A stretch of DNA of 20,000 nt from an uncultured virus (IMG/VR IMGVR_UViG_3300029448_000016). Lineage: Duplodnaviria > Heunggongvirae > Uroviricota > Caudoviricetes. Shown here in pieces: positions 3,210 through 14,824 of this stretch. The position numbers were made by a program, and so were the translations under genes. The number at the start of each line of letters is the position of its first letter. Position 1 is the stretch's first letter. The notes under the pieces are model-generated. The model searched no databases and was not told where the DNA came from. It saw only the letters and a program-made list of their open reading frames with translations. The stretch lies in IMG/VR virus record IMGVR_UViG_3300029448_000016; one strand, written 5' to 3'.

Positions 3210-3229
3210 AGGGTATATAAAGGTTTCCC
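3210..3229 (-). promoter_or_regulatory. archaeal BRE/TATA promoter GGGAAACCTTTATATACCCT
   Basis: Near-identical to 2421-2440; leaderless spacing to ATG 3191. Confidence 0.75.
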
Positions 3230-3379
3230 CTCTTGAACTGAGAGCCCAGCACGAAAAATGAACTGAGTATAAAAAACGGGGGGCTTTTTCATGCAAAACC
3301 TTATATAGTTCAGCTTCCCTATATTAACTATATTAAGATATAGATTAGTTATGCTATAGTATTGCTATAAGTAAAGAGA

Positions 3380-3456
3380 CTAATAGAGCATGCTTAGTTT
3401 AGCACTCTTATGTCTTAGTATAGCATGGTTAGTAGAGCATGTTTAGTAGAGCATTC
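3380..3456. repeat. five degenerate 14-bp tandem repeats (consensus TTAGTAGAGCATGN)
   Basis: ctaatagagcatgc 3380, ttagtttagcactc 3394, 7-bp gap, ttagtatagcatgg 3415, ttagtagagcatgt 3429, ttagtagagcattc 3443. Confidence 0.75.
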
Positions 3457-3766
3457 TTAATATAGGCTTCTTAATTACTTACTCTACTTTGTCGCATGAA
3501 CACATTTCATCGCGAACTAAGAACTTAAACTGGTTTTAGTTTGGGTTTTAAGCCCTACTAAGCACTTTTATTTTCTCATTGGGGCCTACGGTTGTGCTCA
3601 GTGGAGCCCTGAGCCCGACTGAGACAGTTTCTCACTGTGCTTTACGGACCTCCCCTGTTTCTTTATAGAGCCAACTGAGCAATGTTTTCTCACCTCGCCT
3701 TACCGAGCTTTCTCACGAAGGTTTAAAGCTCAACTGAGAGCCCACGAGCTGAGTAGAGCGAAGAAG

Positions 3767-3784
3767 TTTCACTCGAGTGGAAAA
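3767..3784. repeat. terminal copy of the cassette palindrome without TATA box (TTTCACTCGAGTGGAAAA)
   Basis: Matches the palindromic half of the 32-bp repeat; core CACTCGAGTG is a perfect palindrome. Confidence 0.75.
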
Positions 3785-3806
3785 ATAAAATTTATAAAAA
3801 ATAATA

Positions 3807-4025
3807 GGATGAGTAGGAGGATTTATTGTATACCTCCAAAGGGTTTATGCCACTACAAAGTAGAACCCTTACCAGCTTTGCATCCCTCCAGCAGTCGCTT
3901 CTCGGTTTGCGCAGTTCTGTGCCTTAGTCCGTGGCGGACTTGTTCGGCCATACTCGATTACGGAAGAGCTACTTCCATAAATATAAGGTGGGTAGTTGTT
4001 CGAGATACCCAGCTCGATTACTGAT
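3807..4025 (-). ncRNA. putative structured RNA / long structured 3' element (~220 nt)
   Basis: No convincing ORF. Stems GGATG/CATCC (3807/3881) enclose GGAGG/CCTCC and AAGGGTT/AACCCTT; further stems AGTCCG/CGGACT, GGAAG/CTTCC, TGGGTA/TACCCA. Followed by a T-rich tract on the minus strand. Confidence 0.45.
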
Positions 4026-4028
4026 TGC

Positions 4029-4361
4029 CTATTTAATTAGACCTGCCTTTTTCATAGCTTTCTTCAAATCAGCTTCTGACATCTTACCTGATGCAAGAGC
4101 AGCAACAACAGAGTCCACTGAAGGAGCTTTGCCAGTTACTTTTCTTTGTGATTGAAGTTCATGTGTGCGTGATGCAACCATAGATGCAGTTTTATCATTT
4201 GCAGATATTACATCGCAAATGGCAACGAGTGCATCATACTTTACACCAGTAGGATATCTTTCGGAAGTTCCTACTTTTTCTATTCCTAGTGAGTCCAATA
4301 AAGAACTCACGAGCTTTTCATCCTTTGGTGCCCAAAGGTAATCCATCTTGGCCTTAGTCAT
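4029..4361 (-). CDS. hypothetical early protein, leaderless
   Basis: 110-aa ORF; TATA 4382-4389 and TGGT element upstream of ATG. Confidence 0.8.
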   Translation of the reverse strand: MTKAKMDYLWAPKDEKLVSSLLDSLGIEKVGTSERYPTGVKYDALVAICDVISANDKTASMVASRTHELQSQRKVTGKAPSVDSVVAALASGKMSEADLKKAMKKAGLIK

Positions 4362-4390
4362 AATATACCATCCGCTAGTGCTATTTAAGC

Positions 4391-4627
4391 TTATCCCCTG
4401 CTGATGACTTGACGAAGTTCGTATTGCTCAAAGACGTCTGGATTAGATAATCTCACAGAGTCTGCAATTTCTTGATGGCTTCCTCGGCTACCAGTGCCAA
4501 CCGGAATCATTTCTTTATACATTCCATACTTACCGTATGGGGTAGTGCCCACTTCTACGAAGAAGTCGACTTCTTTCTCACTGCGACCCTTCCATGGAAG
4601 AGACGTCTTGGTCTGAATTCTGTTCAT
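4391..4627 (-). CDS. hypothetical early protein, leaderless
   Basis: 78-aa ORF directly downstream of the repeat-linked promoter. Confidence 0.8.
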   Translation of the reverse strand: MNRIQTKTSLPWKGRSEKEVDFFVEVGTTPYGKYGMYKEMIPVGTGSRGSHQEIADSVRLSNPDVFEQYELRQVISRG

Positions 4628-4647
4628 GTATAACCAAGGGAGGGGGT

Positions 4648-4680
4648 CTATATAAAGGTTTTTTCACACGAGTGGAAAAA
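4648..4680 (-). promoter_or_regulatory. 32-bp repeat: palindrome + BRE/TATA promoter
   Basis: plus strand CTATATAAAGGTTTTTTCACACGAGTGGAAAA; TATA 22 nt from ATG 4627. Confidence 0.85.
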
Positions 4681-5096
4681 GATGCAACTTCACCCAAGGC
4701 TCTAATTAGAATTTAAAGCCTACCTTGGGGAGCGGTTGCCTGAGGGCGCGACAATCTTCATAGGTAGCGCCACACGTGGGGTGACCTGTCGCCAGTCAAA
4801 AGCCGAAGCTTCACGAAAGGCGAACACAAACAGAACAGGTGTGATGCAGCATAGCGAATACGAGAAGACATATAACAGGGACAAAGTGATTCAAAGGTGA
4901 TACATAATGTTAGCTACACGTCTTTAATCAACTAAGATGGCCATAGACCGGCAAGGGATTGGTCAGCACTGTTCAGCTAATGTTTGTTATTTTGTCTTTC
5001 GTATTTGGCGTATGGTCGATTTTGTTTCTTTGTCAGGTCACGGTGTTACAGCTGATAACTGTAAGTGAGCGGGGGTAATTTGGGCTCCCCGCTCTG
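4681..5096 (-). ncRNA. putative ~415-nt structured non-coding RNA
   Basis: Own promoter (TATA 5117-5124 + TTGGTTATAC) followed by AGAGCGGGG instead of ATG; two 5' hairpins, long-range nested helices, 3' hairpin, then a T tract. Confidence 0.7.
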
Positions 5097-5128
5097 TATA
5101 ACCAATAGGGTATGCCTATTTAAGCTTT
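5097..5128 (-). promoter_or_regulatory. TATA promoter with no downstream start codon
   Basis: AAAGCTTAAATAGGCATACCCTATTGGTTATAC; last 10 nt identical to the promoter upstream of ATG 4627. The stop codon of ORF 5120..5389 lies inside the TATA box. Confidence 0.75.
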
Positions 5129-5389
5129 GCCCCTTACAAAGTCAATTACTTCATTTGGGACTTTAGTTCCATATTTTTTAATCTCAGAGACATAGACATC
5201 ACCAAGTTCGAATTCTCCGTAAGTGAAATTACTTTTCACCGCACAGAACCAACGAGCGTGAGCGTTCTTTGCTTCGTTTTCTTCGTTTTGGTATTTCTTT
5301 AATACTCTCCATTCAAAGCCATTAGCTCCAGTCCAGACCTCGTATGGGTCGTCAGCACTACGGGATTTACCGCACATGTTTTTAGTCAT
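5120..5389 (-). CDS. hypothetical viral protein, leaderless
   Basis: 89-aa ORF (…ARWFCAVKS…GEFELGDVY…) downstream of the repeat-linked promoter. Confidence 0.8.
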   Translation of the reverse strand: MTKNMCGKSRSADDPYEVWTGANGFEWRVLKKYQNEENEAKNAHARWFCAVKSNFTYGEFELGDVYVSEIKKYGTKVPNEVIDFVRGKA

Positions 5390-5409
5390 ACAATACCAAG
5401 TGTGGGGGT

Positions 5410-5441
5410 CTATATAAAGGTTTTTTCACATGAGTGGAAAA
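5410..5441 (-). promoter_or_regulatory. 32-bp repeat: palindrome + BRE/TATA promoter
   Basis: CTATATAAAGGTTTTTTCACATGAGTGGAAAA; TATA 22 nt from ATG 5389. Confidence 0.85.
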
Positions 5442-5444
5442 GGC

Positions 5445-5466
5445 GGGGGAGAGGCTCTACTCCCCC
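5445..5466 (-). terminator. GC hairpin before T tract
   Basis: GGGGGA-N10-TCCCCC; on the minus strand followed by GCCTTTT of the next repeat. Confidence 0.45.
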
Positions 5467-5491
5467 TGAGGTGTCCGAAAACTTGCGAAAA

Positions 5492-5566
5492 CTATTTGCT
5501 AGCCTTTTTGATAATCTTATTTGTTTTCTTTTTCCAACTGCGTTCCAATGGTTTATCGTAGCTCAT
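5492..5566 (-). CDS. 24-aa basic peptide
   Basis: MSYDKPLERSWKKKTNKIIKKASK; ATGA overlap with the upstream ORF. Confidence 0.5.
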   Translation of the reverse strand: MSYDKPLERSWKKKTNKIIKKASK

Positions 5567-5679
5567 TGGTGACACCCGCAGCAAGGTGCGTCTTCACACC
5601 CGCAGAGAACAATGTAGTCCCCTGCTTCACTTATACCAGAGATGACCATGTCATCTAAAATATCCAAGATGCTCTTCAT
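5563..5679 (-). CDS. 38-aa Cys-rich microprotein (CGCEDAPCCGCH)
   Basis: MKSILDILDDMVISGISEAGDYIVLCGCEDAPCCGCHQ; ATGA-coupled at both ends. Confidence 0.7.
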   Translation of the reverse strand: MKSILDILDDMVISGISEAGDYIVLCGCEDAPCCGCHQ

Positions 5680-5876
5680 TCCCACACCCTCACGTTATTG
5701 TGGTGGTCTGTCAAGGGAATGTTAGCTGGGTCTTCCTTGCGTGGGTCGTCTGTTAGTCCCATGTCAATTGCTTTTAGCTGGTCTAGTAAACCAGAGTCAA
5801 CTAAGTTTTTGGTTTGGGTTCTTCGGGCGGCTTTGCGGAAACGGAAGTCGTTTCTCATGTCCTGTATTTTACTCAT
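5676..5876 (-). CDS. hypothetical early protein, leaderless
   Basis: 66 aa; TATA 5897-5904 + TGGTATAAT upstream of ATG. Confidence 0.75.
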   Translation of the reverse strand: MSKIQDMRNDFRFRKAARRTQTKNLVDSGLLDQLKAIDMGLTDDPRKEDPANIPLTDHHNNVRVWE

Positions 5877-5912
5877 ATTATACCATTGAGTGTCCCTATA
5901 TAAGGGTTTCTC

Positions 5913-6023
5913 TCAGTCCCCCGTCCAGAAGGTCGCAAACATTTCTGTATCGCAATCCTCACACAGTCCACCGAATAATTCGATATCTTCCAAGCCACAG
6001 TCCTGACACGTTTGATTAGTCAT
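5913..6023 (-). CDS. 36-aa acidic zinc-finger microprotein, leaderless
   Basis: MTNQTCQDCGLEDIELFGGLCEDCDTEMFATFWTGD; TATA 22 nt upstream. Confidence 0.8.
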   Translation of the reverse strand: MTNQTCQDCGLEDIELFGGLCEDCDTEMFATFWTGD

Positions 6024-6043
6024 ACAATACCAAGAACACTACC

Positions 6044-6075
6044 CTATATAAAGGTTTTTTCACTTGAGTGGAAAA
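6044..6075 (-). promoter_or_regulatory. 32-bp repeat: palindrome + BRE/TATA promoter
   Basis: CTATATAAAGGTTTTTTCACTTGAGTGGAAAA. Confidence 0.85.
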
Positions 6076-6325
6076 GCTGGCGCCCCTCCTAAGAGGGGGT
6101 AACCTGCGCCCAGCTGTCCTACCTCAATGGGCTGGCTCACTGGGCTGAAGATGCGTCGCTACGTTTAACGCTCGGGCGGACTTATGCCGTAGGCCCTTCG
6201 CCATCTCTTGTCAGGCGTCTTCTCTTGTCTTTACCAGTTTATTAGACTGTTGTCCTCTCACCGCTTCCAAACGGGGCGCCTACTCCTTGGGCCACCTATT
6301 TACAGAGAGCAAAGACTCATGGAAC
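6075..6325 (-). ncRNA. putative GC-rich structured RNA / long structured 3' element (~250 nt)
   Basis: ORF-free in the track and more GC-rich than its neighbours. Nested stems GGCCC/GGGCC (6192/6289), AGGCG/CGCCT (6213/6277), CAGT/ACTG; terminal AGCTGG/CCAGCT encloses CCCCTC/GAGGGG. Confidence 0.5.
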
Positions 6326-6484
6326 TTAACCCCAGTATCCCGACGCTACACAGAACTTGTGCGTGTTGAATCTTGGGTTGTGTTTTACCATTTCACCAGA
6401 CATAGCGAGTATTAGGTCCTCGCTTGCGTCATTGTCTTTTAGTATTTTTGCGATTGCTTCAAAGTGTTTTCTTGTCATAGTCAT
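6326..6484 (-). CDS. 52-aa viral protein (MTRKHFEAIA…NPRF type), leaderless
   Basis: MTMTRKHFEAIAKILKDNDASEDLILAMSGEMVKHNPRFNTHKFCVASGYWG; TATA 6505-6512. Pattern resembles a small hypothetical phage protein family (from memory). Confidence 0.8.
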   Translation of the reverse strand: MTMTRKHFEAIAKILKDNDASEDLILAMSGEMVKHNPRFNTHKFCVASGYWG

Positions 6485-6514
6485 AATATACCATAGAGTG
6501 TGCCTATATAAGGT

Positions 6515-6661
6515 TTACGCTCTTCTCCTCCAGCGCAACATTCTCAGCAACATGCCCTGAGTTTTTATAGGTTGTTTATAAAATTCCTCAAATGTTTGTT
6601 TGCCGCCTAATTCGACGTAGTCGTGCCAGTTGTGGATTGTTTGTATTTCGTATTTGTCCAT
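6515..6661 (-). CDS. 48-aa hypothetical protein (start MDKYEI at 6661), leaderless
   Basis: TATA 6682-6689 lies 21 nt upstream; the track extension to 6700 reads through the promoter. Confidence 0.75.
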   Translation of the reverse strand: MDKYEIQTIHNWHDYVELGGKQTFEEFYKQPIKTQGMLLRMLRWRRRA

Positions 6662-6680
6662 ATTATACCAACGGGTGTGC

Positions 6681-6712
6681 CTATATAAAGGTTTTTTCAC
6701 ACGAGTGGAAAA
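6681..6712 (-). promoter_or_regulatory. 32-bp repeat: palindrome + BRE/TATA promoter
   Basis: CTATATAAAGGTTTTTTCACACGAGTGGAAAA, identical to the 4648 copy. Confidence 0.85.
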
Positions 6713-6715
6713 GTC

Positions 6716-6880
6716 CTACTTGAGCTGGCTTCTTTTGAAACCAGCCCACACGTGACCCTTATCCCAAATGTATTTACTACCACCTGTAGCAGGGTCATAG
6801 ACTAACCAATAGTTATTACCTCTGGCGTCTGTTCCTTTATTGATTATTTTATATCCGTCTTTGGTGTTTCTTTTTCTCAT
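6716..6880 (-). CDS. 54-aa basic hypothetical protein, leaderless
   Basis: MRKRNTKDGYKIINKGTDARGNNYWLVYDPATGGSKYIWDKGHVWAGFKRSQLK; TATA 6902-6909 + TGGT element. Confidence 0.75.
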   Translation of the reverse strand: MRKRNTKDGYKIINKGTDARGNNYWLVYDPATGGSKYIWDKGHVWAGFKRSQLK

Positions 6881-6909
6881 GAATTACCAATAGGGAATCC
6901 CTATATAAA

Positions 6910-6972
6910 GCTTTCTCACCTAAGCGCTTTCTCACCTAGGCTGCTTTCTCACCCCACGCGGGTTTCTCACCC
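6910..6972. repeat. four direct repeats of TTTCTCACC upstream of a TATA box
   Basis: Copies start at 6912, 6928, 6945, 6963 (spacing 16, 17, 18 bp). Confidence 0.8.
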
Positions 6973-7012
6973 ACGCAGGTTAAAATCCCTCGTTTTGAGG
7001 GCCATTAGGCAT

Positions 7013-7144
7013 TTATCTAAGTCTGATAAGACTATTTCTTAATGCTTTTGCATATGTTGATTTTGGTAAATTGATTTTACAATCTTCGTTTTGAAGTTTA
7101 TATTTCAATGCACTAATCACGGCTATTGATGTTTTGTTATCCAT
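7013..7144 (-). CDS. 43-aa hypothetical protein
   Basis: MDNKTSIAVISALKYKLQNEDCKINLPKSTYAKALRNSLIRLR; GGAGGT SD upstream. Confidence 0.65.
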   Translation of the reverse strand: MDNKTSIAVISALKYKLQNEDCKINLPKSTYAKALRNSLIRLR

Positions 7145-7213
7145 TTTAGTTACCTCCATGTTTGGGTTTGGGCTGAGAGAGCCGGAGCTCTCCCATACCC
7201 CCTAACACGGCCT

Positions 7214-7354
7214 TTATTGTTGGTCGTGTATTTGGTCTATGATGTTATGTAATATGTCTAACATATAACCATAAGTTATCACATCATTGTGTCCATATCG
7301 ATTCTTATTCATTTGGTCGATATCATACTTATTTAATTCTATTTCGAATTTCAC
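7214..7354 (-). CDS. 46-aa hypothetical protein (GTG start)
   Basis: MKFEIELNKYDIDQMNKNRYGHNDVITYGYMLDILHNIIDQIHDQQ; GGAGGTGA SD upstream; abuts the previous stop. Confidence 0.65.
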   Translation of the reverse strand: MKFEIELNKYDIDQMNKNRYGHNDVITYGYMLDILHNIIDQIHDQQ

Positions 7355-7666: not shown

Positions 7667-8002
7667 TTACTTATTACCCCCGTAAGTATAACCTTTGTTA
7701 CCTATACCGGCCATGCCTTGAAACTTTGGTTCTTTACCGTATTTCTTGACATGGTCCCAAACTAAGTTTGCTTCATGTGCTAAGCCCTCAAAAACATTAT
7801 CAAATTCAGCCATAACAATTAGGCTGATATCTTGACCCTTTTTAGGTCGGTGCTTAGATAGACGGCTTTGAGGGTCTGAGGTGATACCGTAATACACAGC
7901 TTCCTTAGTTGCCTCGCTACCGAAATCAGCATCTAGAAAATGATAGGATGTCTTTTCTTGCTGTTGGGCTAATCGATACACAAAATACTTTTGATTATTC
8001 AT
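7667..8002 (-). CDS. stand-alone GIY-YIG nuclease-like protein
   Basis: YFVYRL…VYYGITSDPQSRLSKH…LAHE: GIY/YIG-like strands, conserved Arg/His and downstream Glu. Confidence 0.7.
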   Translation of the reverse strand: MNNQKYFVYRLAQQQEKTSYHFLDADFGSEATKEAVYYGITSDPQSRLSKHRPKKGQDISLIVMAEFDNVFEGLAHEANLVWDHVKKYGKEPKFQGMAGIGNKGYTYGGNK

Positions 8003-8180: not shown

Positions 8181-8547
8181 ATACTCAGAATAGCAACCTA
8201 CTTATAAAGATTTTAGGTCAATCCGTGCTTAGCGTTTCACTTCCTAGCTACAAAATAGATACCGTTTTATGTTTATTTTTTCTCAGTTTCTCATTAAGTA
8301 TATTCTCAGTTTGTCAGCATGTGCCCCCGTCTAAAAAGAAAGGCCGCATCCTCTATTATCGTCGACTACCCCTAAAAACAAATCGAGTGAAATTTTGAAA
8401 GTCATTATATAGCTCTATATAGGTATAGTAGATAAGCTACTACTAACAACAATAATGAGCTCTATAAAGCACTCCTCAGTTCAGGGACAGAAAGCCTTAT
8501 ATACTGTCAAAGGTTAAAATTATTACCAAAAGGAGAAACTAACTTCA

Positions 8548-9207: not shown

Positions 9208-10212
9208 ATGAAGAAGACAATTTTAATAACCGGAGTAGCAGGATTGCTAGGCTCCCGATTAGCTGATTGGCTGATAGAGAATACAGAGCACGATGTAATA
9301 GGCGTTGATGACCTTAGTGGTGGATACTTAGAAAACGTTAACCACTTCGTTGACTTCTATAGCTTTGATTTAAAAGAATTAAAGTACGTGGATAATATGT
9401 TTGAAGAGAATAAGATAGATATTGTTTATCACATGGCTGCTTACGCAGCAGAAGGCCTTAGTCCGTTTATGAGGAAACATAACTATGAGAATAACTTGAT
9501 AGCATCTACTAATCTAATTACAAATAGTATTAAACATAATGTAGAACGCTTTGTGTTTACTTCTTCGATGGCTGTGTATGGAGATAAACATACTCCACCA
9601 TTCCACGAAGATTTACTACCCTCCCCGATTGACCCTTATGGTATAGCTAAACTCGCTGTAGAACAAGACTTAGAAGTAGCTCGCCGTCAACACGGCCTAA
9701 ATTATACAGTGGTTCGGCCACATAACTTTTATGGACGAAACCAAAATATCTGGGACAGATATAGGAACGTACTAGGGATATGGATGTATCAGATTATGAA
9801 TAACATACCTCCTACAATATTTGGTGATGGTAAGCAAAAGAGAGCGTTTAGTTATATAGATGATGCTCTTGAACCACTTTGGAAAGCATCACAATCAGAT
9901 GAGTGTATAGGAGAAACAATCAACCTAGGTGGTGTCAAAGAATACACTATCAATGAAGCTTGTAATATTTTATTAGAGGTAACAGGAACAGATTTAAAAC
10001 CAGTACACCTAGAACCACGGCATGAAACTAAATATGCGTGGTCTACATGGGACAAGTCAGTAGAACTATTAGATTTCAAACACAATATAGATTTAGAAGA
10101 AGGTTTAACTAAGATGTGGGAATGGGCACAGAATGCACCAGAACATAAAAGAAAAGAATGGAAGAACTTTGAATTAGATAAAGACATATATAACTTCTGG
10201 GAGAAACAATGA
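9208..10212 (+). CDS. NAD-dependent NDP-sugar epimerase/dehydratase (extended SDR, GalE-like)
   Basis: ITGVAGLLG, DDLSGG, FTSSMAVYG, YGIAK, IFGDGKQKRAFSYIDD. Confidence 0.92.
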   Translation: MKKTILITGVAGLLGSRLADWLIENTEHDVIGVDDLSGGYLENVNHFVDFYSFDLKELKYVDNMFEENKIDIVYHMAAYAAEGLSPFMRKHNYENNLIASTNLITNSIKHNVERFVFTSSMAVYGDKHTPPFHEDLLPSPIDPYGIAKLAVEQDLEVARRQHGLNYTVVRPHNFYGRNQNIWDRYRNVLGIWMYQIMNNIPPTIFGDGKQKRAFSYIDDALEPLWKASQSDECIGETINLGGVKEYTINEACNILLEVTGTDLKPVHLEPRHETKYAWSTWDKSVELLDFKHNIDLEEGLTKMWEWAQNAPEHKRKEWKNFELDKDIYNFWEKQ

Positions 10213-10760
10213 AAGTACCACCTAGTACCGTAGACCACAACCCTACAGATGGTAATACACCATTTCTTTGGACACACCCTCGTAATCACGAGTTTATTAG
10301 TCTTATACCTAGAAGCCCATACTTCATTAAGATAGCTACAATAATACGTAGTACTCCAGACCACGAATGGACAATAGACCAATGTGTAGAGAATGCACAT
10401 TCTATATCAGAACAAGTAATAGTACTAGATGACACACCACATAACGAAGGTATAAAACATATCGAAAAAGATATAAAGTGGGTATTGTTCTTAGATGGAG
10501 ATGAAGTTATAGACACAGAACTGTTTGGTAACTTTTTAAATGACCCAGAGACTTACAACTACGCTATGTATCAATTCGCTAGTGTAGGTTCTGTTTTGAT
10601 AAGAAAAGAATTTGCTAACATGAATACCTCTATATCATCAATAGATGATTGTAGATATCAATTACATTTGTGTAGGTATTGTTCTAACTTCCAATCAAAG
10701 AGTGGACACCTCTATGAAGTGCAATACAACGATGAACCAATGATAAGGAGAATAAAATGA
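10209..10760 (+). CDS. short/divergent glycosyltransferase family 2-like protein
   Basis: VIVLDD and WVLFLDGDE (DxD) motifs; only 183 aa. Confidence 0.55.
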   Translation: MKVPPSTVDHNPTDGNTPFLWTHPRNHEFISLIPRSPYFIKIATIIRSTPDHEWTIDQCVENAHSISEQVIVLDDTPHNEGIKHIEKDIKWVLFLDGDEVIDTELFGNFLNDPETYNYAMYQFASVGSVLIRKEFANMNTSISSIDDCRYQLHLCRYCSNFQSKSGHLYEVQYNDEPMIRRIK

Positions 10761-11650
10761 AAGAAGACCCAGCAATAGAACATGAGAATGTACACACCTA
10801 TTATGATAATAAAAGGAGTGCAGAGAATAAAATACCTGTATTAGGAACTTTAGTAGTACGACAACCTAAATGGGTAAGACAACAAATAGAAAGCGTAGAC
10901 TTTCCAGTAAAGAACTATATTATATTTAATAATAATGGTAAAGGAGAAATAACAGAAGAGCTAGATAAATTAGTTACCGAACACCAAGATAATAAATTTA
11001 TAGATAATCTTCAAGTATGTCACCTTCCATGCAACATAGGTATAGCAGGTGGATGGAACCTAATAATCAAATCATTTATGATGGAACCATATTGGTTGAT
11101 TGCTAATGATGATGTTTCTTTTGGTAGTGGATTCCTCGCAGAGATGTGCGATAAAGCTAAAGACCAAGAAGTTGGAATGATTCATGGGTTTGAAGGTGAC
11201 TTTACAGGAATAGGTAGTTGGAATGTATTTTTATTAAAGGACTGGGTAGTACAACAAATAGGATTGTTTGATGAAAACTTTTACCCAGCTTATTGTGAAG
11301 ATAGTGATTATATAATGCGTATCTTTTTGAGAGAACGTAACATAGGTGGTTCCCCTATAAAACGTATCATGTCTTTAGATAGCACCTACTACCATGGTGG
11401 TGGTGATTCTAAACAAGACAAAGATGAATACTACGAATATGGTATGCAGACTAGTCAAGGAGATGATGAGATTAGAAGAAAGTTAGAATTCTCTAATGTT
11501 ATAAATTTCGAATACATGGAACAGAAATGGGGGCCATGGTGGAGAACTTGTTGGCCATGGGGTAATGGTCCATTTGACAATAAAGATTTACCTTTGTCCC
11601 ACACAACATACGATTTACAATTTGTAAGAAAAAAGAATACGGGGTTTTAA
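10757..11650 (+). CDS. glycosyltransferase family 2-like protein
   Basis: NIGIAGGWN, WLIANDDV, IGLFDENFYPAYCEDSDY. Confidence 0.8.
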   Translation: MKEDPAIEHENVHTYYDNKRSAENKIPVLGTLVVRQPKWVRQQIESVDFPVKNYIIFNNNGKGEITEELDKLVTEHQDNKFIDNLQVCHLPCNIGIAGGWNLIIKSFMMEPYWLIANDDVSFGSGFLAEMCDKAKDQEVGMIHGFEGDFTGIGSWNVFLLKDWVVQQIGLFDENFYPAYCEDSDYIMRIFLRERNIGGSPIKRIMSLDSTYYHGGGDSKQDKDEYYEYGMQTSQGDDEIRRKLEFSNVINFEYMEQKWGPWWRTCWPWGNGPFDNKDLPLSHTTYDLQFVRKKNTGF

Positions 11651-11651
11651 G

Positions 11652-12695
11652 ATGACAATAAAAATGCAAGATTTATGTACAACATCAATAGTTAAAGACG
11701 CAGGTAAAGAAGGAGCACTCACAGCACTCATTATAGATGCTGAACTTACAAATGGTTTAGGATTAATGAATCCTACAATATTAAAAGATAATAACGATTG
11801 GATAACTAATGTAAGAAGTGTATCTTATACATTACATCATTGTGACCCACCTAATCCAGAAGGTAGCGAACAAGATGGTAGATTTCAAACACCATGGGGT
11901 CCATTGAACTATGTTCGCCCAGATGACGACCCATATCTTAGAACAGATAATTATATAGGATATCTTAATGAAGGCAAAGGAATAGAAGGATATCACAAAA
12001 TAGATACTACTAGGTTTCCTAAAATGCCTGATTGGGATTTTATAGGACATGAAGATGGTAGATTAATGAAATGGGATGGTCAACTATGGTTTGCAGGAGT
12101 AAGGAGACATGCCCCAGATGGTAAAGGTAGAATGCAAATGTCTAACATTCAACTAACACCCACAGGAGCATATGAGTTAGAAAGACACATAATAGAAGTA
12201 GAAGACAAACAATCTTATTGTGAAAAGAACTGGATGCCTATTCTTGATATGCCATATCATTTTGTTAAGTGGATGAATCCTTTAGAGATAGTAAAAGTAG
12301 ACCTTCTTGAAAATAAAGCTACTCAAACAAAATTAGGAGATACATTACCTTTTGATAATTTAGACTTAAGAGGTGGTTCACAAGTAGTACCCTATAAAGA
12401 TTATAGAATAGCTATTACGCATGAAGTAGATGGGTGGGTATCTGAAAGAGGCGACCGCGAAGGTCATTACAACCACAGACTTGTAATATGGGATAAAGAT
12501 TGGAATATAGTCTCAGTATCTAAACCATGGAAATTTATGCATGGTAAAATAGAATTTTGTTGTGGATTAGCAATAGAAGGTGACACCCTACATATAACAT
12601 TTGGATATCAAGATAACTCAGCTTATTTATTTAGAGTACCTTTTGATTTTATGAACAACTTACCTAAGGAGGAAGCTTATGAAAGAAGTAATTAG
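11652..12695 (+). CDS. five-bladed beta-propeller glycoside hydrolase/phosphorylase-like (GH130-like) protein
   Basis: NPTI, EDGRL, EKNWMP, LRGGS, IEFCCGL, TFGYQD motifs. Confidence 0.7.
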   Translation: MTIKMQDLCTTSIVKDAGKEGALTALIIDAELTNGLGLMNPTILKDNNDWITNVRSVSYTLHHCDPPNPEGSEQDGRFQTPWGPLNYVRPDDDPYLRTDNYIGYLNEGKGIEGYHKIDTTRFPKMPDWDFIGHEDGRLMKWDGQLWFAGVRRHAPDGKGRMQMSNIQLTPTGAYELERHIIEVEDKQSYCEKNWMPILDMPYHFVKWMNPLEIVKVDLLENKATQTKLGDTLPFDNLDLRGGSQVVPYKDYRIAITHEVDGWVSERGDREGHYNHRLVIWDKDWNIVSVSKPWKFMHGKIEFCCGLAIEGDTLHITFGYQDNSAYLFRVPFDFMNNLPKEEAYERSN

Positions 12696-13392
12696 ACCTA
12701 CATACGCAGAACTAGAACAACAAGTCAAAGAACTACAAACAGAGTTAGATTCGAGACCTGAAATAACATTTCATCCTGTTGCTCACTTTACTAATCTTTA
12801 TCCTTATATCAATAACCCTACACCACAGAATATGTTTGCTTTAGGTTTAGAATATGAAAAGATGGGACAAACAGCATCTGCCATAGGATATTATCATCAA
12901 TGTGCTGAAAGAGCTGTTGATAATAATTTATTAACCTACGAAGCTTTGATAAGGATGTCTTTATGTTATGAAAAGCAAGGTGGTAGAAAAGCACACGAAA
13001 AATTAGCATTACAACATGCGATAGGAGTTATACCAAATAGACCTGAAGCATATTACTTCTTAAGTAGTTTGTATGAAAGACAAGGTGCAGAAGATAATCA
13101 TGAGAGATGGTTTGATTCATATGGGGTAGCTTGTATGGGTGAAAGCCATGAGTTTAATCTAGCAACTAAGATTCCAGATTTACAACCATTACAAACCGAC
13201 ACAGGTTATTATGGAGTACACGGTTGTACATTCCAAAAAGCCGTAGCACTGTGGTGGATAGGAAGAGGTGACGATGCTCGTAAGTTATTTGCAGAACTAG
13301 ATAAAAGGAATGACTTTCCTAGTAACATAAGAGAACTCATTACTAGCAATATAAAAATGTTAAAATCAAACGAAGGGAGACAACCAGAATGA
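12679..13392 (+). CDS. TPR-repeat protein
   Basis: FALGLEYEKMGQTASAIGYY, PNRPEAYYFLS helical repeats. Confidence 0.75.
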   Translation: MKEVIRPTYAELEQQVKELQTELDSRPEITFHPVAHFTNLYPYINNPTPQNMFALGLEYEKMGQTASAIGYYHQCAERAVDNNLLTYEALIRMSLCYEKQGGRKAHEKLALQHAIGVIPNRPEAYYFLSSLYERQGAEDNHERWFDSYGVACMGESHEFNLATKIPDLQPLQTDTGYYGVHGCTFQKAVALWWIGRGDDARKLFAELDKRNDFPSNIRELITSNIKMLKSNEGRQPE

Positions 13393-14036
13393 AACTAATA
13401 GATAACAAATTCTATATACCAGATAATATGGAACAATACTTAGGTGACAACAACGCGTTACCTGAAGAGTTAGTTATTGAATGGTGTAAAAATAATATTA
13501 AGGACACAGAAAAATTTATAGATATAGGAGCTCATGTAGGAACATACGCATGGTCAGTTGCTCCATATTGTAAGGAAGTTATTGCTTTTGAGCCAACACG
13601 TCATAATTACAACATGATGTGTGCAAATATAGCATTAGCAAATTTATCACACAAAATACAAACACACAACATAGGTTTATCTTCTGAAGATACATACCTA
13701 ACTTTTCACGAAAGAGATAGTGATGGTGGTACAAACGGATTTGATACACCATACTTAGGAGAAGGAAACACACAGAGATTACAAGTAAAACAGTTAGATA
13801 GTTTTATAATAGAAGATATAGGACTAATCAAAATAGATGTAGAAGGGCATGAGCTAGAAGTATTGAAAGGAGCTATAAGAACTTTACAAATGAATGGTTT
13901 TCCACCAATATTATTTGAATGTTGGGATATACCAGAATTAAAAGAACCACTATGGAATTATTTAAATTCTATGGGTTATAGTATTTCTAATGCATCATCA
14001 GAAGAAATGTATATAGCATACAAGGAGAATAAATGA
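13389..14036 (+). CDS. FkbM-family SAM-dependent methyltransferase
   Basis: FIDIGAHVG, IAFEP, LIKIDVEGHELEVLKGA, ILFE. Confidence 0.92.
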   Translation: MKLIDNKFYIPDNMEQYLGDNNALPEELVIEWCKNNIKDTEKFIDIGAHVGTYAWSVAPYCKEVIAFEPTRHNYNMMCANIALANLSHKIQTHNIGLSSEDTYLTFHERDSDGGTNGFDTPYLGEGNTQRLQVKQLDSFIIEDIGLIKIDVEGHELEVLKGAIRTLQMNGFPPILFECWDIPELKEPLWNYLNSMGYSISNASSEEMYIAYKENK

Positions 14037-14824
14037 ACGACGAATTTTATAAGAAAGAATACGACTCTGAGGGTTGTAAGTTGCCTAGACAAATTATGGC
14101 AGCAGAAACTAGAACGCCATCTATTGTGGTTGTAGACCATTTTTACAATGACCCTGATGAAGTAAGAAACTGGGCAATAGGAGAAGGTCATTTCCAAGAA
14201 CCCGGCAGTCATGGTGCTGTAGGATATAGATGTGAACAAGAACGTAAATTTTTTAGTAATGCTAAAGAATGTATAGAAAATGTTATGAATGGTAAAGTAA
14301 TAGAAGGAAGCGAAGAAGGAGGTTGGGAATATCCTACTAACGGATGTTTTCAATGGTGTCCAGCTGGTACACCTGTTGCATACCACAGTGATAGCCAACA
14401 GTATGCAGGTGTTTTATTTTTAACACCAGACGCACCACATGACACAGGAACTTCACTCTATAAGCACAAAGACACAGGTATAGACTATTTACCACAAACA
14501 GAAGAAGAATGTCAGAAATACTTTGGTTGCTCATGGCAAGAATTACACAATGCTGTATTTGGTAAGTATCACGGTAAACTAGGAACACCAGACCCTAATC
14601 CACCTAACAACCCAGATATGTTATTGAGAACATACGAATCTAATTACTTAGATGGTACTCAGTTCGAAGAAACTGATAGAGTAGCTAATATATACAATAG
14701 ACTAGTAATCTTTGATGCTAGAAAAATACATTCAGCTACAGCGTACTTTGGAGATAATATACACAACAGTAGATTATTTCAATTATTCTTTTTTAATTTA
14801 GAAAAAGAGGAGGACAAGTTATGA
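14033..14824 (+). CDS. 2OG-Fe(II) oxygenase (DUF6445-like)
   Basis: VVDHFYNDPDEVR, HSD, GVLFLTP, GTSLY, YNRLVIFDARKIHSA, RLFQLFF. Confidence 0.85.
   Translation: MNDEFYKKEYDSEGCKLPRQIMAAETRTPSIVVVDHFYNDPDEVRNWAIGEGHFQEPGSHGAVGYRCEQERKFFSNAKECIENVMNGKVIEGSEEGGWEYPTNGCFQWCPAGTPVAYHSDSQQYAGVLFLTPDAPHDTGTSLYKHKDTGIDYLPQTEEECQKYFGCSWQELHNAVFGKYHGKLGTPDPNPPNNPDMLLRTYESNYLDGTQFEETDRVANIYNRLVIFDARKIHSATAYFGDNIHNSRLFQLFFFNLEKEEDKL

Follow-up and report, generated by a model that had tools for sequence, protein, structure and literature searches.

The window analysed in this study, a 20,000-nt stretch of DNA from an uncultured tailed virus (IMG/VR record IMGVR_UViG_3300029448_000016), carries an array of nine unrelated small ORFs and three structured RNAs, and all of the array genes lie on the minus strand. 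Read in the direction of the genes, the array and its flanks contain the following features.

6912..6970, minus strand: four GTGAGAAA(G/C)C iterons in tandem, spaced by 16-18 nt, immediately ahead of the first promoter
6878..6909, minus strand: palindrome-free promoter of the first small unit (TATA 6909-6902)
6716..6880, minus strand: fam29, 54 aa, leaderless, in the unit with the palindrome-free promoter
6681..6712, minus strand: repeat copy 1, with T-run, palindrome TTTTCCACTCGTGTGAAAAAA, BRE-like CC and TATA TTTATATAG
6515..6661, minus strand: fam63, 48 aa, first gene of unit 1
6505..6512, minus strand: second TATA of unit 1, without palindrome
6326..6484, minus strand: fam2, 52 aa
6076..6325, minus strand: structured RNA X, core about 6108-6316, no ORF
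6044..6075, minus strand: repeat copy 2 (pattern match)
5913..6023, minus strand: fam9, 36 aa, four Cys (CxxC...CxxC)
5897..5904, minus strand: second TATA of unit 2, immediately 3' of the fam9 stop codon
5676..5876, minus strand: fam10, 66 aa, basic N-terminus
5563..5679, minus strand: fam14, 38 aa, Cys-rich C-terminus
5410..5441, minus strand: repeat copy 3 (pattern match)
5120..5389, minus strand: fam5, 89 aa
5116..5123, minus strand: second TATA of unit 3, containing the fam5 stop codon TAA
4680..5098, minus strand: structured RNA S8, about 420 nt, no ORF
4648..4679, minus strand: repeat copy 4 (pattern match)
4391..4627, minus strand: fam3, 78 aa, conserved in 13 sequences
4381..4388, minus strand: second TATA of unit 4, adjoining the fam3 stop codon
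4029..4361, minus strand: fam4, 110 aa
3806..3980, minus strand: manA RNA (Rfam RF01745), full-length match
3767..3785, minus strand: terminal palindrome copy without BRE or TATA (member of family D5)
3628..3716, minus strand: a further three GTGAGAAA iterons outside the array, within the ORF-poor stretch 3300-3766

An archaeal-type promoter block of about 56 bp is used four times in a row, and the 32-bp repeat makes up its upstream portion. A pattern search of the window with CTATATAAAGGTTTTTTCACWYGAGTGGAAAA gave exact matches at 4648, 5410, 6044, and 6681, where 0 copies were expected, and no match was found in 200 dinucleotide-preserving shuffles. The four copies and the TATA-less terminal one reported in a first-pass annotation of the sequence are real. 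On the gene strand, the repeat is composed of a run of four or five T, the palindrome, a BRE-like AAA(C/G)C, and the TATA box TTTATATAG. The conserved stretch (family D1) is 56 nt long and extends past the 32-mer up to the start codon, with nine variable bases 3' of the TATA box, followed by TTGGTAWWWT and then the ATG. Because the ATG is situated about 20 nt downstream of the 32-mer, the mRNAs look leaderless. The palindrome core (family D5) is present in five copies, including the one at 3767-3785, and has the form TTTTCCAC-N4-GTG(A/G)AAAA, in which the arms are invariant and the four central nucleotides are free to vary. The same was seen in about 45 palindrome copies from 10 sequences, in which CCAC and GTG were invariant and the 4-nt centre was variable. 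As RNA, the palindrome folds weakly (-3.5 to -4.6 kcal/mol, z of -0.9 to -1.5), not beyond shuffles. Since the stem never covaries while the loop varies, we suggest that the sequence, not the shape, is recognised.

Each of the four units contains a second promoter with the same core but without the palindrome. The palindrome-free TATA boxes are found at minus-strand positions 6909, 6512, 5904, 5123, and 4388, the last four of which correspond to the second TATA boxes given earlier, in plus-strand reading, as 6505, 5897, 5117, and 4382. As had been proposed, these second promoters stand on or next to the stop codon of the first ORF, which is overlapped by the TATA box or its BRE. The division into four units was confirmed, but a further palindrome-free unit, with its promoter at 6909 and its ORF at 6716-6880, lies upstream of them, and the first ORF of unit 1, which had been assigned a GTG start at 6700, starts at 6661 instead. 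The two promoter types alternate strictly in the window, as first described, but this is not a general rule, as the second promoter is degenerate in some relatives (TTTATAAA within the fam2 coding end). A TATA-to-ATG spacing of 27-29 nt was observed for 11 of the 34 TATA-to-ORF pairs in the window, with eight within the array and one at the next promoter (3220), and for 11/72 pairs in the complete relative G004. The exception in the array to the rule that an ORF follows the TATA box is 5123, after which an ORF-free RNA comes next.

None of the nine array ORFs, fam3, fam4, and fam5 included, had a match in Pfam, PHROG, or PDB, and no candidate palindrome-binding protein was found. The ORFs of different units belong to different families (all-against-all blastp, E 1e-4), in agreement with the earlier view that the cargo is unrelated between units. 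The fam29 gene also occurs in the relatives L009 and L068 (87-93% DNA identity), and the location of fam9 varies between relatives. fam5 was modelled as a small beta-barrel (mean pLDDT 80.6) and fam4 as a helical protein (mean pLDDT 74.4); these two models gave only weak fold matches (Z <= 4.7).

The array cargo also includes real structured RNAs, as the first reading had proposed. Compensatory changes were found in 23 of 54 predicted pairs of RNA X (15 sequences, 98.3% of cells paired), whose 3' end carries a GC hairpin and a T-run, and in 18/40 pairs of S8 (14 sequences), whose core is closed by a helix of GUGACCUG (5041-5034) with CAGGUCAC (4788-4781); an Rfam search gave no match for either. 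The manA RNA scored 62.1 bits against a gathering score of 55.2, has a T-rich tract without an ORF on its 3' side, and keeps its position in 6/8 relatives. Contigs from RNA libraries mainly cover S8 (4745-5059), X, and part of manA, which is a hint of expression.

The genomes of the relatives carry capsid, portal, TerL, and tail genes and are therefore those of tailed viruses. An aIF-1A gene was identified in 6/6 relatives examined, in one by NCBIfam NF003084 (107 bits against a cut-off of 91) and in five by PF01176, and an archaeal Hsp20-like gene was also found. The nearest cellular aIF-1A among the few candidates tested was that of a Nitrosopumilales MAG, with 42% identity. Together with the archaeal-type BRE/TATA promoters and the leaderless starts, which lend further support, this suggests that the virus, which is of marine origin, probably infects archaea, as had been supposed, a host call based on a gene in relatives (one contig is 98% identical to the window over the overlap) and not in the window itself.

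We put forward, with moderate confidence in the account as a whole, that this is a marine tailed virus with a four-fold promoter block, a regulatory palindrome, and recombination between the blocks. Host TBP, TFB, and RNA polymerase would initiate at or just before the ATG, yielding leaderless mRNAs. The palindrome abutting the BRE is a putative binding site for a protein dimer, probably encoded by the virus, that would co-regulate the first gene of every unit. Tandem copies of what may be the same half-site (GTGAGAAA) bracket the entire block: the motif was matched nine times in the window, where 0.95 matches would be expected; on the minus strand, seven of these lie to either side of the array, and the GTGAGAAA(G/C)C form is similar to the palindrome's right half-site. 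The second promoter, which has no palindrome and overlies the stop codon at the end of the first ORF, would express a second cargo consisting of a small protein and/or a structured RNA; this cargo could therefore be made both by read-through and independently. Each unit is probably terminated by a GC hairpin together with the T-run from the following palindrome, and the TATA-less copy 3' of manA would end the array. The promoter blocks are the sole sequence common to the units and to co-infecting relatives and could therefore provide patches for homologous recombination, a process that may have reshuffled the upstream two units. Reshuffling by homologous recombination has likewise been proposed for the PeSLs of T4-type phages.

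It is conceivable, although we consider it unlikely, that the palindrome and its T-run are a unit-end terminator or insulator rather than an operator, preceding a promoter only because the next unit follows; the palindrome-free promoters would then be internal and would need no terminator ahead. Such a role would explain the TATA-less copy that closes the array 3' of manA in the window and in seven related loci, and a GC hairpin indeed stands ahead of each of the four promoter-linked palindromes (MFE of -17.9 to -25.6 kcal/mol, z of -1.7 to -4.7; for example, at about 5445-5466, 3' of fam14), whose first arm provides the T4-5 run. In L014, a CCAC-N4-GTGG palindrome is separate from the TATA box, with a GC hairpin in between, and the repeat of the haloarchaeal virus HGTV-1 has a strong GC stem-loop, with T-rich and A-rich arms on either side, upstream of the promoter. 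According to the accessible text of PMC2839356, PeSL stem-loops are terminators. The terminal copy, as well as extra TATA-distal copies in L009 and L012, suits a unit-end element better than an operator. However, the weak RNA fold and the absence of covariation in the stem despite the variable loop argue against this role, and so do seven arrays in which the first promoter bears the palindrome directly after the iterons, with no unit upstream. A scan for terminators by bacterial rules was empty at the unit ends. In archaea, a T-run suffices for transcription termination, and the empty scan is therefore weak evidence.

In an IMG/VR scan, the palindrome-promoter was found in 39 stretches of 19 contigs, all belonging to one clade, and in each of two complete genomes all four copies are in one 1.9-kb cluster in one orientation. 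The first-pass annotation had regarded the units as exchangeable cassettes, which was borne out only in part. In the 17 typed arrays, the upstream two units are arranged in four ways, with several breakpoints at promoters, but the downstream two have a single order in 12/12 arrays reaching them, and other breakpoints are at the edges of an RNA gene. The window arrangement was found again in the independent contig L072. Homology endpoints were within 10 nt of a promoter element in 48/120 cases against 19% expected, an approximately twofold enrichment, and in 18/49 cases when distinct endpoints were counted (binomial p 0.003), with endpoints that come from related genomes and are not independent. 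Moreover, nearly every gene boundary bears a promoter, so that "at a promoter" is inseparable from "at a gene boundary". The more distant relatives L013 and L015-L018 keep fam5, fam3, and fam4 without the palindrome, which, like the invariance of the downstream two units, speaks against the account put forward above.

The array could be regarded as an ordinary co-regulated early cluster, in which the repeats are promoters only and illegitimate recombination with selection has put the breakpoints at gene boundaries. The fixed downstream units, the modest and non-independent enrichment, and the many endpoints inside genes or clustered at the repeat-free 5' and 3' edges of RNA X are in line with this, as is the lack of any weighty repeat-to-repeat joint in contigs from a DNA run, where the only such joint had a depth of 3.8 and a shorter side of 21 letters. 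Nevertheless, we find this explanation quite unlikely, considering that homology blocks end inside promoter blocks (the homology between the window and L009 runs from a plain promoter to the TATA box of repeat copy 1 and ends there), that the fam9 module is flanked by the palindrome and, at its opposite end, by a plain promoter and occurs in two different contexts, and that fam2 is under a palindrome promoter in 15/17 typed arrays but under a plain one in the window and L072.

True mobile cassettes, with the palindrome recognised by a dedicated site-specific recombinase as in integrons, would also account for palindromic sites bounding all units, a terminal site without a promoter, and unrelated cargo. 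This is very improbable, however, because a Pfam scan of 39 larger ORFs of G004 detected a RecU-like resolvase and a PD-(D/E)XK nuclease but no integrase or transposase family, several junctions coincide not with the palindrome but with plain promoters and the edges of RNA X, and no circle-type joints were seen in the contigs examined. A bacteriophage whose repeat acts as a sigma-70 promoter, with TTTATA as the -35 and an extended TGGTATAAT as the -10 element, is scarcely credible: the copy at 6689 agrees with 10/12 consensus positions and has a TG extension, TerL has many weak matches to cyanophages and pelagiphages, and cyanophages and two gamma-proteobacteria are known to carry manA RNAs (in the accessible part of PMC2864571), but the other copies have no -10 consensus (TTATAC, TAATTC) while GGT and the TATA spacing are kept, sigma-70-like sites are not enriched (7 against 5.7 expected), the relatives encode an aIF-1A-type factor and not bacterial IF-1, and a -10 element would touch the ATG, so that transcripts would start within every ORF.

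The array is a PeSL-like regulatory cassette array. As first suggested, it resembles PeSL cassettes in its repeated promoter and palindrome ahead of small orphan genes and in forming a variable early region. It is also comparable to HGTV-1, in which a conserved TATA-like box with an inverted repeat precedes most ORFs of one arm; this motif, of which we counted 21 copies in the HGTV-1 record, was already likened to PeSLs in the available text of PMC3950731, and the earlier view that no description existed is therefore not supported. The array places a manA RNA, a family known until now from cyanophages, in a virus that probably infects archaea.

The array is organized around an exact 32-mer, CTATATAAAGGTTTTTTCAC(A/T)(C/T)GAGTGGAAAA, at window positions 4648, 5410, 6044 and 6681, which had no match in 200 dinucleotide-preserving shuffles; the four repeats reported in the first-pass annotation are thereby confirmed. 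Repeat finding widened the conserved block to 56 nt (family D1) and returned a fifth copy consisting of the palindrome core alone (3767-3785, family D5), which is the TATA-less terminal copy described in that annotation. Every candidate gene of 3767-6975 is encoded on the minus strand. Read in this direction, the repeat consists of a T-run, the palindrome TTTTCCAC-N4-GTG(A/G)AAAA, AAA(C/G)C and TTTATATAG, followed by 9 variable bases, TTGGTAWWWT and the ATG. Four palindromes are preceded by GC hairpins of -17.9 to -25.6 kcal/mol, where the T-run is also found. The second TATA boxes without a palindrome that had been proposed within the units are present as plain promoters of the same core; the ORF before such a promoter has its stop codon overlapped by the plain TATA or by the BRE. 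As expected of archaeal-type promoters, in which the BRE/TATA precedes the start site or ATG by some 25-30 nt, a TATA-to-ORF spacing of 27-29 nt was found for 11 of 34 pairs in the window and 11 of 72 in the complete relative G004. The plain promoters and the cargo of the array, in minus-strand order, are as follows.

6909, minus strand, TATA of a plain promoter
minus strand, fam29, small ORF of 54 aa, first of nine
minus strand, fam63, 48 aa, second
6512, minus strand, TATA of a plain promoter
minus strand, fam2, 52 aa, third
6076-6325, minus strand, structured RNA X
minus strand, fam9, 36 aa, fourth
5904, minus strand, TATA of a plain promoter
minus strand, fam10, 66 aa, fifth
minus strand, fam14, 38 aa, sixth
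5120-5389, minus strand, fam5, 89 aa, seventh
5123, minus strand, TATA of a plain promoter
4680-5098, minus strand, structured RNA S8, about 420 nt
minus strand, fam3, 78 aa, eighth
4388, minus strand, TATA of a plain promoter
minus strand, fam4, 110 aa, ninth
3806-3980, minus strand, manA RNA (Rfam RF01745)

A third promoter class, with the same BRE/TATA core and a CTCAGTT(C) element in the place of the palindrome, was also observed. The window contains 13 copies of CTCAGTT, where 3.25 would be expected, and several of them are just 5' of promoters outside the array. The promoters of this class are:

3221, minus strand
2432, minus strand
8475-8503, plus strand

The palindrome core, TT(C/T)CAC-N4-GTG(A/G)AA, is present in 10 of the 19 sequences examined (the window and 9 related loci), with 1-6 copies per sequence and 4-6 where the whole array is covered. 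All copies are inside the array and oriented with the genes, and the TATA-less copy 3' of manA is found in the window and 7 loci. The four promoter-linked copies share one 1.9-kb cluster in each of two complete genomes, and none is found elsewhere. When 2.9 million IMG/VR contigs were scanned, 19 contigs, every one from the same clade, carried the palindrome-promoter, in a total of 39 stretches. More distant relatives (L013, L015-L018) keep fam5, fam3 and fam4 and have no palindrome, and in L014, another such relative, a CCAC-N4-GTGG palindrome is set apart from the TATA. The arms of the palindrome are constant, its four central bases vary freely, and as RNA it folds weakly (-3.5 to -4.6 kcal/mol, z of -0.9 to -1.5). 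Because of these three properties, recognition of the DNA sequence by a dimeric protein is a better explanation than an RNA hairpin, which argues for the palindrome as a putative DNA site for such a protein. The palindrome could instead serve as a terminator or insulator, as the terminal copy without a TATA and the context of T-run and hairpin would suggest, but we consider this role improbable. As for the source of a protein binding the putative DNA site, TTCCAC-N4-GTGGAA showed no enrichment across 61 Nitrosopumilales genomes, 2 of which contained it, compared with 7 for the reversed control. It is thus ruled out as a common host motif within this set, and a viral origin of the binder, if one exists, is more likely.

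Nine copies of the motif GTGAGAAA, which is similar to the right half-site of the palindrome, were found in the window against 0.95 expected. These iterons include four tandem copies just upstream of the array and three just downstream. In addition, the ORF-poor DNA that separates the array from the next operon holds overlapping tandem copies of about 14 nt (TAGTAGAGCATG..., family D3) at window 3381-3473; these and the iterons at 3628-3716 could jointly be a replication origin or control region.

The window DNA had no close match among 50,697 phage records, with none at all for 3500-7300, and tblastn with the major capsid protein of a relative also gave no match. Related loci, 18 in number, were collected from IMG/VR through the AAA ATPase (AAA_5 + CbbQ_C, CobS-like). 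The complete relative G004 (67 kb, direct terminal repeats) encodes an HK97-type capsid, portal, TerL, a tape-measure-like protein and a family B DNA polymerase, as well as the CobS-like ATPase with a VWA protein, an Hsp20 nearest to the archaeal type (NCBIfam) and an eIF-1A-family protein. The last is assigned to archaeal/eukaryotic IF-1A by NCBIfam NF003084 (107 bits against a cut-off of 91). Its gene lies at L020:11917-12249, L020 being a locus of G004, and was also found in 5 of 5 further relatives (G002, G003, G005, G006 and G008), including a contig 98% identical to the window in their overlap, and hence in 6 of 6 relatives examined. Among three confirmed cellular matches of this aIF-1A, the nearest is from a Nitrosopumilales MAG (42% identity). 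An 82% match is carried by L023, the 10.9-kb contig NZMJ01000097.1 labelled as a Maricaulis sp. MAG, which is probably a contig of this virus group mis-binned into a bacterial MAG. A virus-encoded aIF-1A is unusual given the leaderless-looking early mRNAs.

The cobS/cobT pairs are uninformative on the host because they occur in bacterial and archaeal tailed viruses alike (PMC8651126). Marthavirus identity was not adopted, since the Marthavirus marker RadA (PF08423; PMC7678222) was found in 0 of 3 relatives, despite the CobS-like and VWA genes. No tRNAs were found in the window or G004. The aIF-1A and Hsp20 evidence, the promoter type and the predicted leaderless starts make an archaeal host likely, with Nitrosopumilales plausible, so that the earlier assignment to an archaeal virus was right in kind. 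A bacterial sigma-70 reading of the promoters fits one copy at 10 of 12 positions, but it would start transcription inside every ORF, and the number of such sites, 7, is close to the 5.7 expected, so that there is no enrichment. The array stretch (window 3700-7000) is nearly identical, that is, at 83% of sampled words or more, in 16 DNA runs from several marine studies of 2014-2025.

Two observations concern the surroundings of the array. On the plus strand, window 9208-14824 holds a sugar-modification cluster between a divergent promoter region and a PD-(D/E)XK nuclease, comprising an NAD-dependent epimerase/dehydratase, a galactosyltransferase-like protein, a TPR protein, an FkbM-type methyltransferase and a DUF6445 protein. 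At 7667-8002 on the minus strand, a short way upstream of the array, a 111-aa ORF has a sub-threshold GIY-YIG match (20.9 against 22.6 bits).

The nine array ORFs are separate families, most of them conserved in 10-13 related sequences, and none matched Pfam or PHROGs. Profiles of fam3, fam4 and fam5 found nothing credible among PDB sequences; a single match at 3.6e-06 was discarded, as it covers only 15 residues of a designed repeat protein. For fam5, the ESM Atlas gave a top score of 0.77, which is under the lead level. The fam4 model is helical (pLDDT 74) and that of fam5 is a small beta-barrel (pLDDT 80.6). Foldseek with both models returned no match at E <= 0.001, and the best VIA-align Z scores (4.2 for fam4, 4.7 for fam5) are weak fold matches. 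In its model, fam5 looks like a small SH3/Tudor/Sm-like barrel of no nameable family. Its gene is always directly upstream of the S8 RNA, and it is conceivable that the two are a candidate protein-RNA pair.

Three ORF-free stretches of the array are RNAs, namely manA, X and S8. RNA X, with a core of about 210 nt, was aligned in 15 distinct sequences, where 98.3% of the cells of its 54 predicted pairs do pair, compared with 87.1 ± 0.7% in shuffles and 36-50% when the partners are slid. Compensatory changes occur in 23 of the 54 pairs (14.1 ± 2.0 in shuffles, 2-7 when slid), and an invariant 24-mer of X is found in 17 IMG/VR contigs, all of this clade. An ORF family within X ('MAKGQWHKSARALNVATHLQP', window 6124-6204) was rejected as spurious because conservation there lacks codon periodicity and the pairs covary. 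RNA S8, aligned in 14 sequences, lies behind the plain promoter at 5123, from which, by its position, it is predicted to be transcribed. Here 99.2% of the cells pair against 88.9% in shuffles, and compensatory changes affect 18 of 40 pairs (6.7 ± 1.7 in shuffles, 1-5 when slid); for example, the long-range helix GUGACCUG/CAGGUCAC is replaced by GUGACGAA/UUCGUCAC in L009, a related locus, both sides having changed together. Neither X nor S8 matched an Rfam family at E up to 10, and our literature searches found no paper on non-coding RNAs in marine archaeal viruses. By covariation, support for which equals that of curated families, X and S8 are two unreported families of predicted structured RNAs. 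The structured-RNA cargo claimed in the first-pass annotation is thus real, with manA above its threshold and X and S8 showing covariation.

Three RNA libraries were compared as contigs. One of them yielded error-free contigs over 4745-5059 (S8) at depth 35-56, one further contig over 5549-5670 with 5 mismatches at depth 6, and nothing over the remainder of the 4-kb stretch. The other two contained variants of S8, X (6081-6290), part of manA and the fam14 region. These data hint that the array RNAs are abundant, with DNA carry-over possible in a contig-based comparison, and the appearance of X and S8 without the neighbouring genes is a hint at expression, not proof.

The manA copy of the window scores 62.1 bits against a gathering score of 55.2 and covers the model over its full length (positions 1-192). 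At the same place, 6 of the 8 relatives scanned pass the threshold, as does G004. Its conservation in five close relatives is 88-95%, compared with 67-80% for the neighbouring fam4 gene. Single-stranded blocks that are invariant in manA and X suggest that these RNAs may form a binding pocket. manA is a riboswitch candidate (Weinberg et al. 2010, PMC2864571) that mostly occupies 5' UTRs; it is described from T4-like cyanophages, two gamma-proteobacteria and marine metagenomes (PMC2864571, PMC9964418). The source of the window is likewise marine and viral. The copy described here differs in that it is an ORF-less module at the 3' end of a unit in what is probably an archaeal virus. It does not lie in a 5' UTR: manA is followed by a T-rich tract and by 480 nt in which no ORF is convincing, the next feature downstream is the terminal palindrome, and no ATG-start ORF of at least 30 aa is present on the minus strand between manA and the promoter at 3221. 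In L014 (3777-3951), manA is upstream of the small-gene array rather than after fam4, and fam9 is duplicated; therefore the RNA module itself has moved. The 61 Nitrosopumilales genomes gave 0 matches to manA, and the control likewise matched nowhere. The occurrence of manA outside bacteria and their phages is new here.

The units had been described as exchangeable cassettes, and this was overstated. We compared 21 arrays: the window, 10 from the AAA-ATPase loci and 10 from the palindrome-promoter scan. Within the palindrome clade, the downstream half has one order in 12 of 12 arrays reaching it, whereas the upstream half shows four arrangements among 17 typed arrays. With PAL for the palindrome-bearing and plain for the palindrome-free promoter, and F20 and F28 for further array members, the orders are as follows.

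Downstream half: PAL fam5, plain S8, PAL fam3, plain fam4, manA, terminal palindrome
Upstream half, type A (7 arrays): PAL fam9, plain F20, X, PAL fam2, fam10, fam14
Upstream half, type B (2 arrays, the window and L072): plain fam29, PAL fam63, plain fam2, X, PAL fam9, plain fam10, fam14
Upstream half, type C (3 arrays): fam9 elsewhere, plain fam29, PAL F28, X, PAL fam2, fam10
Upstream half, type D (5 arrays): fam9 behind another promoter, small ORFs, X, PAL fam2, fam10, fam14

It follows that fam9 and fam2 swap around X and that fam2 switches promoter type. The fam9 module common to types A and B has its limits exactly at a palindrome and 12 nt beyond the plain promoter that follows (window 6078-5864), and the block shared by the window and L009 (6916-6680) runs from a plain promoter to the TATA of repeat copy 1, where it ends. 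Contigs of a 2014 marine run have the arrangement of the window over 6004-6710 and 5621-5994, their independence from its source being uncertain.

The proposal that breakpoints coincide with the repeats is supported in part. Counting the internal ends of homology blocks of at least 100 nt between the window and the other arrays, 48 of 120 endpoints are no more than 10 nt from a promoter element, where 19% would be expected, in genomes that are related and not independent. With endpoints merged within 5 nt, 18 of 49 are at promoter elements (binomial p 0.003, again among related genomes), and others cluster at both edges of RNA X and inside genes. Nearly every gene boundary in the array bears a promoter, so that "at promoter" is inseparable from "at gene boundary". 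No integrase or transposase families were found among 35 ORFs of the window or 39 of G004; an integron-like array would have a site-specific recombinase gene beside cassettes bounded by recombination sites. When contigs of public runs, which drop rare forms, were examined for circles or unit deletions, they contained no weighty repeat-to-repeat joint; a single repeat-adjacent joint is weak (depth 3.8, shorter side 21 letters). The best reading of the upstream variation is homologous exchange at promoter blocks, as the aligned arrays suggest, and dedicated mobility of the units is unlikely.

In T4-type phages, the PeSLs combine an early promoter with a stem-loop. These composite motifs flank orphan genes in hyperplastic regions, serve as promoters and terminators, and recombine, by which modules are shuffled and mini-circles arise (Arbiol et al. 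2010, PMC2839356; Comeau et al. 2014, PMC4122927). The array has the same clustered composite motif 5' of small orphan ORFs: a repeated promoter and palindromic element in a variable early region, with expression signals of its own for each unit. Differences between relatives that map to the motifs, and crossovers between promoter elements and start codon, may be a further likeness, some endpoints being at promoter elements and others at the edges of RNA X, with two units that never vary. However, PeSLs have a sigma-70 promoter and Shine-Dalgarno sequence, and the array has an archaeal-type BRE/TATA 27-29 nt from the ATG and apparently no leader. Moreover, the array palindrome is upstream of the promoter and weak as an RNA fold, copies number 4-5 per genome compared with about 50, and the units carry a second, palindrome-free promoter inside together with structured-RNA cargo. 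Terminator activity and mini-circles were demonstrated for PeSLs and are putative for the array. By comparison of layout and variation pattern, the array can be called PeSL-like.

The first-pass annotation knew of no description with such strict promoter alternation and ncRNA cargo, and it overstated the novelty; a closer precedent exists in the haloarchaeal virus HGTV-1. The ORFs of one arm of this virus are preceded by a conserved TATA-like box and inverted repeat, which were likened to PeSLs (PMC3950731, citing Sencilo et al. 2013). The HGTV-1 record (L093) contains a 68-nt repeat in 21 copies, spread over 15.9 kb. In each copy a strong GC stem (CTCCTCGTG/CACGAGGAG) is framed by a T-rich and an A-rich arm, and a promoter stands about 20 nt after the repeat and about 28-31 nt before the ATG. 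A second conserved element, CGAAAG(R)CTTAAK, was observed on the gene strand at L093:33000-48855 (record 128000-143855), between the 68-nt repeat and the start codons and about 28-31 nt before the ATG; thus the HGTV-1 motif is a palindrome followed by a separate promoter. Both are tailed viruses, archaeal in the case of HGTV-1 and probably so here, in which small ORFs of one arm each have a T-rich arm, a palindrome and an A-rich/TATA-like arm, with the promoter at a similar distance from the ATG, and the window too has a TATA-like box and inverted repeat before such ORFs. The HGTV-1 TerL is also the best archaeal-virus match of the clade's TerL (24% identity over 77% of the query). The repeats themselves share a design and no sequence likeness (CCAC-N4-GTG against CTCCTCGTG-GCA-CGAGGAG), and the array has a short palindrome that is AT-flanked and joined directly to the BRE/TATA. 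A non-systematic look at HGTV-1 showed neither two-promoter units nor RNA cargo. What is new here is the lineage with its likely host, the operator-like palindrome fused to BRE/TATA with matching iterons, and the two-promoter unit.

In the host-takeover module of the Bacillus phage SPO1, short early genes stand singly or in pairs behind strong repeated early promoters of the sigma-A type; this module is not known to have units bounded by palindromes or to carry RNA cargo. The earlier interpretation of the array was right in kind, in that PeSL-like cassettes with RNA cargo are present in a probably archaeal virus, while the host-takeover role remains putative.

We tentatively propose, as a reading that is possible but as a whole somewhat unlikely, that the array is chiefly a viral non-coding-RNA platform, with X, S8 and manA as the real cargo acting on a marine ammonia-oxidising archaeal host. 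Each RNA would stand behind a plain second promoter, and the first promoter of the unit would be gated by a viral regulator. Rather than a bacterial 5'-UTR riboswitch, manA might be a viral RNA that acts in trans or senses a ligand and is employed in more than one domain (cyanophages and archaeal viruses), and many manA sequences labelled "marine metagenome" may stem from archaeal viruses. The small beta-barrel fam5, encoded directly 5' of S8, could be its partner, and the 56-bp promoter blocks might double as linkers for module swaps between co-infecting viruses.

To our knowledge, viruses of marine Nitrosopumilales and other planktonic archaea have come almost solely from metagenomes, and their gene regulation is unknown. 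The array offers a readable regulatory code for such viruses, in which a single promoter core is combined with an operator-like palindrome, with iterons and with unit ends. The presence of manA in an archaeal-virus context and outside a 5' UTR bears on the long-open question of its role. PeSL-like architecture, previously described for T4-type phages and a single haloarchaeal virus, is found here in a marine lineage that is widespread.
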